A stretch of DNA of 64,000 nt from Escherichia coli (GTDB taxonomy: Bacteria; Pseudomonadota; Gammaproteobacteria; Enterobacterales; Enterobacteriaceae). Each line of letters opens with the position of its first letter. The first letter of the stretch is position 1. The position numbers are program-made. Shown piece after piece: positions 46,601 through 52,600 of the stretch. The stretch lies in assembly GCF_024298765.1 (NCBI RefSeq), contig NZ_CP101210.1, one strand, 5' to 3'.

Positions 46601-49600
46601 TAAAACTCCGGCGAGGTGTCGAGGTTGTGGTTATAGTAATCCAGCCCGGCATTCGCCAGGCGCTGCGCTTGAGATTCACTCAACGTGCCCAGCGTCATAC
46701 ACGCCTCCAGACCCATCGCTTTTACCCCCTGCACCATTTGTTCCAGGTACGGCATATCGCGTTCGTGGGGATTCTTCCACGCCGCGCCCATACAGAAACG
46801 CGTCGATCCCGCCGCTTTCGCTTTGCGCGCCGACTCCAGCACCTGTTCAACTTCCATCAACCGCTCGGCTTCCAGCCCGGTTTTGTAGCGCGAGCTTTGC
46901 GGGCAATATTTGCAATCTTCCGGACAAGCTCCGGTCTTAATCGACAGCAAAGTGCTGACCTGCACCTGACGAGGATCGAAATGCTGACGATGCACCTGCT
47001 GCGCTTCAAACAGCAGATCCAGCAACGGTTTTTCAAATAATTCTGTGACTTGCGACAATGTCCAGCGTGGGCGGTGAGCCATGGGGCTTCTCCAAAACGT
47101 GTTTTTTGTTGTTAATTCGGTGTAGACTCGTAAACCTAAATCTTTTCAATTTGGTTTACAAGTCGATTATGACAACGGACGATCTTGCCTTTGACCAACG
47201 CCATATCTGGCACCCATACACATCCATGACCTCCCCGCTGCCGGTTTATCCGGTGGCAAGCGCCGAAGGTTGCGAGCTAATTTTGTCTGACGGCAGGCGC
47301 CTGGTTGACGGTATGTCGTCCTGGTGGGCGGCGATCCACGGTTACAATCACCCGCAGCTTAATGCGGCGATGAAGTCGCAAATTGATGCTATGTCGCATG
47401 TGATGTTTGGCGGTATCACCCATGCGCCCGCCATTGAGCTGTGCCGCAAATTGGTGGCAATGACGCCGCAACCGCTGGAGTGCGTTTTTCTCGCGGACTC
47501 CGGCTCCGTAGCGGTAGAAGTGGCGATGAAAATGGCGTTGCAGTACTGGCAGGCCAAAGGCGAAGCGCGCCAGCGTTTTCTAACCTTCCGCAATGGTTAT
47601 CATGGCGATACCTTTGGCGCGATGTCGGTGTGCGATCCGGACAACTCAATGCACAGCCTGTGGAAAGGCTATCTGCCAGAAAACCTGTTTGCTCCCGCCC
47701 CGCAAAGCCGCATGGATGGCGAATGGGATGAGCGCAATATGGTGGGCTTTGCCCGCCTGATGGCAGCGCATCGTCATGAAATCGCGGCGGTGATCATTGA
47801 ACCGATTGTCCAGGGCGCAGGCGGGATGCGCATGTACCATCCGGAATGGTTAAAACGAATCCGCAAAATGTGCGATCGCGAAGGTATCTTGCTGATTGCC
47901 GACGAGATCGCCACCGGATTTGGTCGTACCGGCAAACTGTTTGCCTGTGAACATGCAGAAATCGCGCCGGATATTTTGTGTCTCGGTAAAGCCTTAACCG
48001 GCGGCACAATGACCCTTTCCGCCACGCTCACCACGCGCGAGGTTGCGGAAACCATCAGTAACGGCGAAGCCGGCTGCTTTATGCATGGGCCAACTTTTAT
48101 GGGCAATCCGCTGGCCTGCGCAGCAGCAAACGCCAGCCTGGCGATTCTTGAATCTGGCGACTGGCAGCATCAGGTGGCGGCTATTGAAGCGCAGCTACGC
48201 GAGCAACTTGCCCCCGCCTGTGACGCCGAAATGGTTGCCGATGTGCGCGTACTGGGGGCAATCGGCGTGGTCGAAACCACTCGTCCGGTGAATATGGCAG
48301 CGCTGCAAAAATTCTTTGTCGAACAGGGGGTATGGATCCGGCCTTTTGGCAAACTGATTTACCTGATGCCGCCCTATATTATTCTCCCGCAACAGTTGCA
48401 GCGTCTGACCGCAGCGGTTAACCGTGCGGTGCAGGATGAAACATTTTTTTGCCAATAACGGGAAGTCAGCGTGAGGGTTTCTGGCTACACTTTCTGCAAA
48501 CAAGAAAGGAGGGTTCATGAAACTCATCAGTAACGATCTGCGCGATGGCGATAAGCTGCCGCATCGTCATGTCTTTAACGGCATGGGTTACGATGGCGAT
48601 AATATTTCACCGCATCTGGCGTGGGATGATGTTCCTGTGGGAACGAAAAGTTTTGTTGTCACCTGCTATGACCCGGATGCGCCAACCGGCTCCGGCTGGT
48701 GGCACTGGGTAGTTGTTAATTTACCCGCTGATACCCGCGTATTACCGCAAGGGTTTGGCTCTGGTCTGGTAGCAATGCCAGACGGCGTTTTGCAGACGCG
48801 TACCGACTTTGGTAAAACCGGGTACGATGGTGCAGCGCCGCCGAAAGGCGAAACCCATCGCTACATTTTTACCGTTCACGCGCTGGATGTAGAACGTATT
48901 GATGTCGATGAAGGTGCCAGCGGCGCGATGGTCGGGTTTAACGTTCATTTCCACTCTCTGGCAAGCGCCTCGATTACTGCGATGTTTAGTTAATCACTCT
49001 GCCAGATGGCGCAATGCCATCTGGTATCACTTAAAGGTATTAAAAACAACTTTTTGTCTTTTTACCTTCCCGTTTCGCTAAAGTTAGTATAAAAAAGTTG
49101 AATGTGAAACGGTAAAAACAATTAATATCAACGGCTTATAATTGATTCAGTCTAAAAAATAGACTGCATAATGCTACAAAACACAACATATCCAGTCACT
49201 ATGAATCAACCACTTAGATGGTATTAGTGACCTGTAACAGAGCATTAGCGCAAGGTGATTTTTTTGTCTTCTTGCGCTAATTTTTTGTCAACACACTGGG
49301 TTAGCTGAATTTACAACCACGCTCAGTATCTCGATAAGCGCAGAGAAATGATGCAGTGGTGGGCGGATTGGCTTGATGAAAAAGTGGAGTAATCCGGACC
49401 GTACTTCTTTATCCAGGCATAAAGGCTGTGGGTGGTGATATCGAGACGTGTTGCAACGCTGGCAACAGAATAACCGCGATCAATAACCTGTTTGACTGCT
49501 TCAGTTTTAAACTCTTCGGGATAACGCTTACCGCTCATGGGCACCTCTCTTTAAGCCATCTTAAATGACTCTGAGGTGTCTGTTAAACCCGTGGCGATTC

Positions 49601-52600
49601 AAAACTGCGTGTTACGTTCGCCCTGGACTGTTGCGATCGTGAAGCCATAGACTGGGCCGCAAGCACGGGAGGTTACGATAAAGCGACAGTGCAGGATGTC
49701 ATGTTAGGAGCGATAGAAAAACGCTTTGGCGATAAAGTACCGGAACAGTCCATCCAGTGGCTGACAGATAACGGTTCAGCGTATAGAGCGCATGAAACAC
49801 GGCAGTTCGCCAGAGAGTTGAATCTGGAGCCCTGCACAACGGCAATCAGCAGTCCTCAGAGTAATGGAATGGCAGAAAGGTTCGTGAAAACGATGAAGGA
49901 AGACTACATCGCGTTCATGCCGAAACCGAATGTAAGAACGGCATTGCATAATCTTGCAGTGGCGATCGAACATTACAATGAAAACCATCCGCACAGTGCG
50001 CTGGGTTATCGCTCTCCGCGAGAATATCGACGTCAGCGGGTAACGTTAACTTAAGATACACCCCCTGTCTGGAAATAAGGGGGCAAGAACAATGATCAGA
50101 TTCCCTGGTGAGTAAGAATTTTACTTTCTGAACTCCTCTGAGAGTATTGACTTGGAGAAACACCAAAATAACGTCTAAATACATAAGTAAAGTATGAGAC
50201 ACTGGCATAACCACAGACCTTAGCTACTTTACTAATAGGATAACAACGAGTGCTGAGTAAATATTCAGCCATTTGCATCCTCTCATCAAGTATGATCTTA
50301 CTGAATGATACCCCCTCTTCTTTCAATTTCATCTTTAGTAAACTTTCGCTGAGATATAATCTTGATGATATATCCTTAAGACGCCATGGTGCAGATAAAT
50401 CCGTATGAATAATCGTTTTAACTTTAGCCCCTGTGCTTTTCAAACATCCAAACAGAAATACTCCAAATTGTTTTTCAGAAGAAAATGCAGAGAGACATGT
50501 AAAAGCAATAGACTCATCAAAAATTTCTATGTATTCAGCACAGTGATTAGCCCAACTAATTAATCCTTTAATTAAACTGAAGTCAGCAAAGTTTATTTTT
50601 AAATAAGATGGATATTCCCTACAATCAGAAATATCCCTTAAGTTATTAGCTTTCAAATAGCGACTAATAAACTCAGCGCCAAAATCCGCCACTATCACTC
50701 TTTCAGGATATGTCAGGAAAAAATCTCTAGAGCTAGAGTCGACAAGTACAGATGAACCTCTCTCCAGAAACACACTCTCTTTTCCGAAATAAACATCAAA
50801 GGACTCCAAAATCAATATAACTGAACATGTAGTTGCCATATCATCCACCCAATTTAACTGAAACCTGGATGAAGTATATGCATATAAAGTTCACTTTGCC
50901 AAACTTCAGTATAAAAAACCACATAAAAAATAGGGTGTGATAAAAAATACCGTAACAATAAAGCAAAGGATTATAAAATCCGTTACAGTTACAAATGATA
51001 CTCAAGAAACAATTCCTTAGGAAAAACTTATTTACAGCCAATAAGGGTAATGACTCGAACTTATTGATAGTGTTTTATGTTCAGATAATGCCCGATGACT
51101 TTGTCATGCAGCTCCACCGATTTTGAGAACGACAGCGACTTCCGTCCCAGCCGTGCCAGGTGCTGCCTCAGATTCAGGTTATGCCGCTCAATTCGCTGCG
51201 TATATCGCTTGCTGATTACGTGCAGCTTTCCCTTCAGGCGGGATTCATACAGCGGCCAGCCATCCGTCATCCATATCACCACGTCAAAGGGTGACAGCAG
51301 GCTCATAAGACGCCCCAGCGTCGCCATAGTGCGTTCACCGAATACGTGCGCAACAACCGTCTTCCGGAGCCTGTCATACGCGTAAAACAGCCAGCGCTGG
51401 CGCGATTTAGCCCCGACATAGCCCCACTGTTCGTCCATTTCCGCGCAGACGATGACGTCACTGCCCGGCTGTATGCGCGAGGTTACCGACTGCGGCCTGA
51501 GTTTTTTAAGTGACGTAAAATCGTGTTGAGGCCAACGCCCATAATGCGGGCAGTTGCCCGGCATCCAACGCCATTCATGGCCATATCAATGATTTTCTGG
51601 TGCGTACCGGGTTGAGAAGCGGTGTAAGTGAACTGCAGTTGCCATGTTTTACGGCAGTGAGAGCAGAGATAGCGCTGATGTCCGGCGGTGCTTTTGCCGT
51701 TACGCACCACCCCGTCAGTAGCTGAACAGGAGGGACAGCTGATAGAAACAGAAGCCACTGGAGCACCTCAAAAACACCATCATACACTAAATCAGTAAGT
51801 TGGCAGCATCACCAGCCTTCTTGAGGCTACCACCTGTTTTCAGGTGTCATTCAGACGTGATTTGCCCCAGATTGGGAAAGCACGCTTTTTTCTCAGCTAT
51901 CGTCCTCTTATTTTGCCGTTACATTTCTTTTTGCACTCTAATGATTAATTTACAATAATAATATCGGTAATTATTGAGTAATAATAAATTGATTATTGCA
52001 AATGTAATTTAATTCCATCTTCGCGTTATATTCCAATCTTTAATCTCCGCATGGAACAAGTTGCATGCGTGACTATATTAAGACAACTTATAACCACCAA
52101 AACATTTGCTTTGCAAGCAAAAACAGTGACCATTGACTCTAAGAAAATTCCGATCTATTGTTAGGGTCATCAAAGTTACTTAACAGTATTCCGAAATGAA
52201 AATACAAAGCAAGCTAATTGTCTTATTAAACATTATTATTGCATTTATATTATTTGAGCTTTTAGCTCAAAAATTTGGTTTGAGTACATTATTTTAAAGC
52301 AAGATAAACAATATCGGGCACTCTAGTTTTTATAATTAACAATTAAACGTCCATGAAATGTTATTTACTTTTCTTCGCTATTGTCATATCTTAATATAGT
52401 GGCTTACGCCACTCTACTTTCATCACATTTTGTACGTTTATGTACTCGCCATGAAGCTCTTTCATGGCGATTTTTTATTCTTAATCCAAGAACATACTCC
52501 CTACCTATAGCAAAATCACTTTTTTAACAAAAGAATAACGTATTTAGGTAATCATTACGAATTTACCCTATAGGTGCTACTGGCCATTCAATATCCGGTG

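Follow-up and report, generated by a model that had tools for sequence, protein, structure and literature searches.

Stumps of two IS3-family insertion sequences and an integrase-gene scrap at the end of a lambda-like prophage of Escherichia coli

Elements of the IS3 family move by copy-out, paste-in, via a circular intermediate whose two ends are inserted at once. Escherichia coli K-12 carries IS2 (insC/insD) and IS3 (insE/insF), and also a pseudogene, insX (b4505), in the cryptic prophage CP4-6; the latter is a 5′ stump, with an intact left repeat and the start of orfA only, lying among IS debris. In O157:H7 the prophage Sp1 (CP-933H), located at thrW, has the 3′ stump of another element, ISEc48, whose end is joined to a gene for an AraC-family regulator. 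ISEc48 resembles IS2 (protein identity 62.5% for OrfB and 74.6% for OrfA, with similar terminal repeats), and the OrfB of ISEhe3, the parent element of insX, is closest among the K-12 references to IS3 InsF (42%). Both parents have left fragments at the locus described here, and neither fragment is IS2 or IS3 itself.

The locus lies in a 64,000-nt stretch of an E. coli genome (assembly GCF_024298765.1, contig NZ_CP101210.1), hereafter the window. A lambda-like prophage is integrated there at the lambda attachment site beside bioA-ybhB (ybhB ends at 48993), and at its end stand stumps of two different insertion sequences and a scrap of an integrase gene (Table 1). Very probably this scar, which lies in the prophage's accessory (‘b’) region, is an ordinary relic of three parts, inert and non-functional. 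It is already known: PGAP marks all three pieces as partial pseudogenes (identical sequence), and the Sakai annotation names a partial ISEc48. An Rfam scan of 48400-52000 gave no match, and a promoter and terminator scan gave counts not above those in shuffled sequence (promoter-like sites in the region: 6 found, 5.5 expected). On the right the conserved module is bounded by an IS1A copy outside the scar; homology to phage ev099 and to O157 halts at 51045 and restarts at 51814. Phage ev099 is without this IS1A insertion and keeps 550 bp that are absent from the window.

Table 1. Features of the scar and its surroundings, in window coordinates
Feature	Coordinates	Strand	Basis
Attachment-site core, lambda-type (attR side), joining ybhB to the prophage	49084..49098	.	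Aligns with annotated ‘O core of attP’ of phage 434
sib/tI-type hairpin in the P-arm of the phage attP	49237..49288	+	Inverted repeat, 18-nt arms; aligns with annotated terminator of phage 434
Relic: 3′ end of IntS/HK620-type tyrosine integrase gene (…YNHAQYLDKRREMMQWWADWLDEKVE)	49309..49390	+	Identity to intS and phage integrase genes
Chimeric 71-codon ORF: 49 ISEhe3 OrfA codons, then 22 codons antisense through the integrase relic	49323..49538	-	Translation
Deletion junction (putative): 12-nt stretch GTGGAGTAATCC	49384..49395	.	Integrase relic GTGGAGTGATCC and ISEhe3 GTGGA[A/G]GAATCC agree at 10/12 positions
ISEhe3 (K-12 ‘ISX’) 5′ stump: left terminal repeat intact, leader, orfA codons 1-49	49391..49601	-	98.6% identity to a full copy (L002)
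ISEc48-like (IS2-group) 3′ stump, nt 847-1336 of 1336	49602..50091	+	97.2% identity to a full ISEc48 copy (L003)
AraC-family regulator gene, 247 aa, convergent with the ISEc48 stump	50096..50839	-	One residue (M170R) from O157 Sakai ECs_0287
IS1A copy, right boundary of the conserved module; context, outside the scar	51046..51813	-	PGAP ‘IS1-like element IS1A family transposase’

An initial annotation had recognized an N-terminal fragment of an IS3-family orfA on the minus strand, and this was borne out: the ORF at 49323-49544 matches Pfam HTH_Tnp_1 (E 2e-14, residues 5-48), and by BLAST window positions 49383-49601 correspond to nt 219-1 of the 1229-bp element (L002 copy, E 5e-111). The tip TGAATCGCCACGG… lies at 49601 and the orfA ATG at 49538. 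The terminal inverted repeat begins with 5′-TG exactly where homology ends, the same tip being found in L002, and 48 of the 49 OrfA residues are identical to those of the full copy. About 18% of the element, its first 211-219 bp, is kept. The IS sequence had been taken to start at 49323, which was too far left: IS-derived DNA starts at about 49383-49391, and the ORF reads on, antisense, through the integrase relic, a third piece that had been missed.

The name of this element, ‘ISEhe3 orfA’, comes from source annotations and its placement in the IS51 group from an ISfinder-derived table (PMC10425158), rather than from comparison with the ISfinder sequence or any IS51-group reference; K-12 annotates the same element as ISX/insX (IS3 family). 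An assignment to the IS407 group/IS1222, considered first, was dropped in favor of what these sources give. In the full copy L002 the two terminal repeats match at 31 of 45 positions, the element ends exactly at the terminal TG/CA and a 3-bp AGA target duplication flanks it. In the parent an A7G frameshift site lies at nt 303, OrfB is 270 aa long and PGAP gives the label ‘programmed frameshift’. Frameshift site and OrfB DDE (rve) domain are both absent from the window stump, and since it stops before the frameshift site it is a relic, not a functional IS3 member. Judged by position in the full OrfA, the coiled-coil part (…AEIRRLQKELKRV…) has gone as well.

The K-12 insX pseudogene is 97–98% identical to the stump over the shared part (96.9%/98.1%). 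It keeps 312 bp and is ended by an IS30 remnant, whereas the window stump appears to be ended by a microhomology deletion into the integrase relic; on the outer side of the stump lies yagB in K-12 but internal ISEc48 sequence in the window. A match at 7 of 8 nt between the insX flank AAATTGCG and the window flank AAACTGCG was considered as a trace of shared insertion ancestry and set aside as chance or target preference, the homology going no further.

The plus-strand partner had been called the C-terminal half of an IS2-group orfB, which also stands. Window positions 49601-50092 align with the last 492 bp of the full ISEc48 copy (BLAST E 0); the stump is the last 490 bp, about 37% of the element, with the C-terminal 149 codons of orfB at 49605-50054. 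That frame matches Pfam rve and rve_3 (E 1e-12 and 1e-16), and because the rve match begins at profile position 25 of 102 the fragment is the C-terminal part. It is 71% identical to IS2 InsD, against 26% to IS3 InsF, 20% to IS150 InsK and 25% to ISEhe3 OrfB. The right terminal repeat is intact and IS2-like, ending …CA (window TGTTCTTGCCCCCTTATTTCCAGACA, IS2 right repeat TGGATTTGCCCCTATATTTCCAGACA); four full copies confirm its end, …GGGGGCAAGAACA at 50091. In the curated Sakai record the stump is called ‘ISEc48 Family: IS3 partial’. The full DDE triad, orfA and the left terminal repeat are absent, the first-Asp segment WCSDGF and everything upstream of it being gone. Both IS stumps keep open reading frames, and the ISEc48 stump differs from an active copy at 10 synonymous and 3 non-synonymous codons; this mostly synonymous pattern would be no less expected had the differences built up among active IS lineages ahead of the truncation.

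The fragments thus come from two elements of different subgroups and neither is complete, as the initial annotation had it; one parent belongs to the IS51 group and the other to the IS2 group. We checked whether both might map to one known element in its normal arrangement; this is ruled out by the opposite strands, by the lack of detectable nucleotide similarity between the parents and by the 24% identity of their OrfB proteins. Neither stump can transpose: only one terminal repeat is left in each, and in both the transposase is incomplete.

How the pieces came together is recorded in two junctions. On the right, the ISEhe3 tip at 49601 meets ISEc48 nt 847 at 49602, with one ambiguous A at 49601; the fragments had been described as lying within about 15 bp of each other, and they are indeed adjacent, but they abut without a gap, and the 63 bp from the ATG to the junction are ISEhe3 leader and terminal repeat. 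Because an exact ISEhe3 tip (…TTCA) is here joined to internal ISEc48 sequence, the junction looks transposase-made. On the left, alignment of the window with intS, phage 434, a further locus (L010) and two ISEhe3 copies puts the crossover between 49390 and 49391. The break inside ISEhe3 falls at the microhomology of Table 1, and this anatomy marks it as a deletion junction, with the integrase relic as left partner. Over 49309-49382 the relic is 100% identical to the intS 3′ end in strain PigCaeca_1, and it matches the integrase genes that HK620, CUS-3 and IME10 carry at 94–95% identity; PGAP labels it ‘hypothetical protein, missing N-terminus’. In phage 434 and other prophages at the same site it occurs without the IS stumps and extends beyond the junction, and hence it predates the deletion.

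The best reading, to which we give a probability of roughly 80%, is that ISEhe3 inserted into ISEc48 and that a microhomology-mediated deletion followed, both in an ancestral phage; nesting and later deletion had already been proposed in the initial annotation, and the anatomy of the junctions supports it. An ISEc48-like element of the IS2 group would first have landed directly beyond a patE-like AraC gene or within its final codons. ISEhe3, facing the other way, would then have transposed into ISEc48 orfB, separating ISEc48 nt 846 from nt 847. Finally, a deletion may have run from the 12-nt microhomology, located at about codon 50 of ISEhe3 orfA, to the end of the older integrase relic beside sib/attP. 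It would have taken out ∼1,010 bp of ISEhe3, nt 1-846 of ISEc48, where the transposase's first catalytic Asp is encoded, and any DNA in between; what was left would since have been replicated as part of the phage. The sequences themselves show what the three relics are, how far they extend and how they are oriented, the exact IS tip on the right, the microhomology on the left and the inheritance with the phage. We infer the sequence of events and how much was deleted, and as no intermediate turned up in any collection searched, the order is read from the junctions.

Several searches bear on this. With a synthetic 899-bp query, a longer ISEhe3 at the same junction was found in 0 of 5,426 complete E. 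coli genomes at ≥80% coverage, and a synthetic 1,100-bp query found no uninterrupted ISEc48 beside the AraC gene, the ancestral state. The predicted left junction, searched as the pattern GATGATGGCGAA-N(2-7)-TGAATCGCCACGG, had 0 matches in IMG/VR and 0 in GTDB species genomes; its one match in JGI metagenomes is without homology to either IS and is put down to chance. The complementary junction, with the other ISEc48 half and the target duplication, is absent from the window, and no relative has it in IMG/VR, the JGI metagenomes, the GTDB genomes or the 5,426 E. coli genomes. A simple ISEhe3 insertion would be proved by its target duplication, which has been lost with the deleted side.

The only two-piece match to the 899-bp query, on plasmid p2RM10740, suggests a different beginning. 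There a complete ISEc48 lies head-to-head with an ISEhe3 that IS30 has interrupted, at a distance of 60 bp and oriented as in the window, with a different junction. If the two elements had likewise first been neighbours a few tens of bp apart, an intramolecular event at the left end of ISEhe3 could have removed the spacer along with ISEc48 nt 1-846, and a second deletion could have truncated ISEhe3; like nesting, this would join an exact IS tip to internal ISEc48 sequence. We consider it unlikely. It calls for as many events as nesting does, the plasmid locus has an AIDA-I gene as its neighbour and no relation to the prophage of the window, and one-ended adjacent deletions are not a usual product of IS3-family elements, given that their circular intermediate inserts both ends together.

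The scar did not arise in this chromosome; it was formed in an ancestral phage and inherited with the phage. It is 99–100% identical in 183 of the 5,426 genomes, in 176 of which it is contiguous with ybhB at the lambda attachment site. It also occurs in four IMG/VR contigs and in the free genomes of phages ev099 (Radostvirus), mEp332 and PhiR70_1. In these phages int-xis is joined to attP, and the whole three-part scar and the AraC gene follow directly after attP and sib. Across the phages the scar is 99.1–99.6% identical, close to its flanks (98.2% over 49081-51045), which speaks for recent common descent rather than selection. O157:H7 Sp1 shares the ISEc48 3′ stump and the junction of the IS end with the AraC gene (99.3% identity over 49618-51045). 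Its stump lacks 16 bp on the left (breakpoint 49618), is joined to unrelated DNA and comes without the ISEhe3 stump or the intS relic, and its prophage is a different one, at thrW rather than at the lambda site.

These comparisons also weigh on the idea that the stump was kept for a function, as a phage-borne regulator of host ISEhe3 copies built from the ISEhe3 promoter and the 71-codon HTH ORF, through antisense transcription across sib/attP, or by the ISEc48 end serving the AraC gene. The ORF retains its ATG, its leader, a promoter-like site (49586-49558, TTAACA-17-TAAGAT) and the whole HTH_Tnp_1 match; ev099 has it annotated as a gene, and the module survives in three isolated phages. Such sites are, however, no commoner here than in shuffled sequence, the coiled-coil part is missing, the identities resemble recent common descent, and the O157 copy of the AraC module does entirely without the ISEhe3 stump. 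We therefore hold a retained function to be highly improbable; there is a correspondingly slight chance that the promoter and ORF, expressed from the prophage and acting in trans, could damp resident ISEhe3 transposition or yield a sib/attP antisense transcript altering integrase retroregulation. Junctions arising as assembly artefacts or chance resemblance are already refuted by the same sequence in 183 independently assembled complete genomes and three independently sequenced phages and by the E-values above.

The AraC-family gene has its stop codon at 50096-50098, close to the IS2-like repeat as first described, the gap being 4 bp and not 6. Its counterpart ECs_0287 lies in prophage Sp1 of O157 Sakai, and by position only, through Sakai Sp1 and a published report (PMC10877973), the gene is probably patE (Z0321). 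The regulator and the ISEc48 stump have travelled together between unrelated prophages, the lambda-site phage and O157 Sp1, and the scar can serve as a lineage marker for a lambda-att phage family carrying a patE-like acid-resistance/virulence regulator. Of little importance alone, it is a textbook example of how IS elements accumulate, and decay, at the end that a temperate phage genome can dispense with. For annotation, the 73-aa ‘transposase’ ORF (gp31 in ev099) is a chimera of IS stump and antisense integrase sequence.

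The interval that the initial annotation read as a fusion of fragments from two insertion sequences does consist of two such fragments, although its coordinates needed correction and a third relic, the 3′ end of an integrase gene, has to be added. This scar is an ordinary graveyard of IS fragments that travels with a phage lineage and had been annotated before; PGAP annotation, taken from a 100% identical genome (strain 104), marks three partial pseudogenes in it.

The window carries bioD-bioC-bioF-bioB, bioA and ybhB, with ybhB ending at 48993. An attachment core, an attP P-arm and a sib/tI hairpin lie to the left of the scar, and to its right are an AraC-family gene, an IS1A copy, a tail-fibre assembly gene and a side tail fibre gene. 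This places the scar at a lambdoid prophage's attR end, within the accessory segment equivalent to the lambda b region. The IS1A copy lacks a 9-bp target repeat and stands in place of 550 bp kept by phage ev099 (L007 5964-6513), which together suggest an IS1-associated adjacent deletion.

Features of the scar, its surroundings and compared ISEc48 copies (L numbers are compared loci with their own coordinates)
Feature	Position	Strand	Remark
Lambda-type attachment core	49084-49098		~90 bp past ybhB; aligns with annotated phage 434 feature
sib/tI hairpin	49237-49288		after attP P-arm; aligns with annotated phage 434 feature
Integrase relic	49309-49390	+	
'hypothetical protein, missing N-terminus'	49309-49392	+	PGAP
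ISEhe3 stump	49391-49601	-	
ORF matching Pfam HTH_Tnp_1	49323-49544	-	E 2e-14
'transposase, missing C-terminus'	49392-49538	-	PGAP
ISEc48 stump	49602-50091	+	
Frame matching integrase-core families rve_3 and rve	49605-50054	+	
'integrase core domain-containing protein, missing N-terminus'	49602-50054	+	PGAP
AraC-family gene	50096-50839		L022 24102-24845; stop codon 50096-50098
IS1A copy	51046-51813		homology with O157 Sp1 ends exactly at 51045, at its edge
15-bp repeats, L003 (full ISEc48 copy)	1638-1652, 2989-3003		
15-bp repeats, L017 (plasmid p2RM10740)	2860-2874, 4210-4224		
15-bp repeats, L020	flanks of 653-1988		
Left truncation points of ISEc48-like stumps	query positions 15, 65, 128, 188, 238, 245, 293, 343, 350, 448		all to 488/489

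Among 5,426 complete E. coli genomes, 183 contain the 768-bp interval at 99-100% identity, and 176 of these carriers have it in one continuous stretch with ybhB and the attachment site. Three phage isolates, ev099, PhiR70_1 and mEp332, carry the full series (int, attP, sib, integrase relic, ISEhe3 stump, ISEc48 stump, AraC gene) at 99.1-99.6%, and four IMG/VR contigs have it as well. It follows that the scar formed in an ancestral phage and reached this chromosome by lysogeny, not by local events.

The minus-strand piece shares 98.6% identity with the initial 219 bp of a full element from E. coli NCTC11129. This 1229-bp copy has terminal repeats starting TGAATCGCCACGG and a target duplication of 3 bp (AGA), and it encodes an OrfA of 92 aa and an OrfB of 270 aa, with an A7G slippery site at nt 303; by exact-sequence look-up, public sources name its proteins 'ISEhe3 transposase A/B, IS3 family', and the phage SfIV record annotates the same element as ISEhe3. 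K-12 MG1655 has its own 312-bp ISEhe3 stump, annotated 'insertion sequence ISX' (pseudogene insX). An ISfinder-derived table places ISEhe3 in the IS51 group of the IS3 family, with 3-4 bp repeats (PMC10425158). The stump retains a terminal repeat, the leader and 49 OrfA codons; read-through gives a chimeric ORF of 71 codons, the final 22 of which are antisense integrase relic. The ISEhe3 repeat contains a promoter-like site, and such sites are no more frequent across the region than in shuffled sequence; an Rfam scan of the region gave zero family matches. ISEhe3 interrupted by IS30 at nt 313/314 is recurrent, being found in K-12 CP4-6 (L016 1432-1926), NCTC11129 (L002 238-2035) and p2RM10740 (L017 363-4209).

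In the plus-strand frame the rve match begins at position 25 of the 102-position profile, which makes the frame a C-terminal part. This piece shares 97.2% identity with the final 490 bp of a complete element named by PGAP 'IS3-like element ISEc48 family', whose full length is 1336 bp (four copies compared, ends aligned with those of IS2); in the curated record of O157:H7 Sakai, the copy of this stump bears the label 'ISEc48 Family: IS3 partial'. There remain 149 OrfB codons, among them those for two catalytic-triad residues, the second Asp and the Glu, while the segment with the first Asp, the whole of orfA and the left repeat are gone. As had been claimed, each fragment is incomplete, with one terminal repeat and only partial orfA or orfB; having one end each and no complete transposase, neither stump can move. 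ISEc48-like stumps occur at many E. coli loci with varied left truncation points and the right terminal repeat always retained; one in BL21 adjoins an autotransporter gene.

IS3-family elements, including IS2, usually duplicate 3-5 bp. On either side of three independent full-length ISEc48 copies there are direct repeats of 15 bp (AGCACAACGATGCAC, ACATTATAGTTAATA and GGCG(T/C)CTGATTAAAA), and a fourth copy, in an IS-rich region, has no flanking direct repeats. The ISEc48 stump in the window ends 4 bp from the stop codon of the AraC gene, which converges on it, close as the initial annotation noted, although it gave ~6 bp. If a 15-bp repeat were general, the target duplication here (50092-50106, by analogy) would span that stop and the last three codons.

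The fragments do come from different IS3 subgroups, IS51 and IS2-like. ISEc48 OrfB is 62.5% identical to K-12 IS2 InsD (71% for the window fragment), and ISEhe3 OrfB is 42% identical to IS3 InsF. A single element in normal arrangement is ruled out by the 24% identity between the two OrfBs and the lack of any nucleotide similarity found between the parents.

The fragments do not merely abut within ~15 bp: the terminal base of ISEhe3 (…GGCGATTCA) at 49601 directly meets ISEc48 nt 847 at 49602, one A being ambiguous. An exact IS tip joined to the internal sequence of another IS is the expected product of transposition. At the left junction ISEhe3 homology fades over 49383-49391 into non-IS DNA. 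There, 49309-49382 matches the intS 3′ end of one E. coli genome at 100% identity and the integrase genes of HK620, CUS-3 and IME10 at 94-95%; the same relic follows sib in phage 434 and other lambda-site prophages, where it extends beyond the position of the window's switch to ISEhe3. Over the 12 nt at 49384-49395, relic (GTGGAGTGATCC) and ISEhe3 (GTGGA[A/G]GAATCC) agree at 10, and two diagnostic bases locate the crossover at 49390/49391. Such a junction is typical of deletion through short homology, and the TAA ending the relic's reading frame is its product.

The exact tip on the right and the microhomology on the left support nested insertion followed by deletion, as first proposed. In the most economical order of events, ISEc48 would have inserted beside the AraC gene, ISEhe3 would then have entered ISEc48 orfB, and a deletion at the microhomology would have joined ISEhe3 orfA to the integrase relic. 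A longer ISEhe3 at the scar junction was found in none of the 5,426 complete E. coli genomes, and a search of E. coli genomes found no uninterrupted ISEc48 next to the scar's AraC gene; a search for the predicted left junction in IMG/VR, GTDB genomes and JGI metagenomes gave a single hit, in JGI, and that was a chance match. An IS-end-mediated adjacent deletion, starting from head-to-head ISEhe3 and ISEc48, would give an identical right junction, and in plasmid p2RM10740 the two elements, with ISEc48 complete, lie in just this orientation, 60 bp apart and adjoining AIDA-I autotransporter genes; this route is nevertheless less likely than nested insertion, because IS3-family elements transpose through circular intermediates.

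The IntS/HK620-type 3′ relic (49296-49390; L008 4205-4330; L010 3012-3140) lies just past sib/tI, oriented like the phage's own int, in the lambda-att phages 434, lambda h434 imm21, Huey, Gally and vB_EcoP-720R6 and also in prophages; it may be the trace of an old integration-module exchange.

In O157:H7 Sp1/CP-933H the ISEc48 stump and the AraC gene form a 1.4-kb module at the prophage end (99.3% identity, 49618-51045), whose left breakpoint, unlike that in the window, lies 16 bp further in and which lacks ISEhe3. The AraC protein differs by one residue from Sakai ECs_0287 of prophage Sp1. Sp1 corresponds to O-island 8, where a review places patE (Z0321) (PMC10877973); thus, judged by position alone, the gene is probably a patE orthologue. 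Its G+C content is 35%, against ~50% in its neighbours, and the pair of AraC gene and ISEc48 stump is found in two unrelated prophage backbones.
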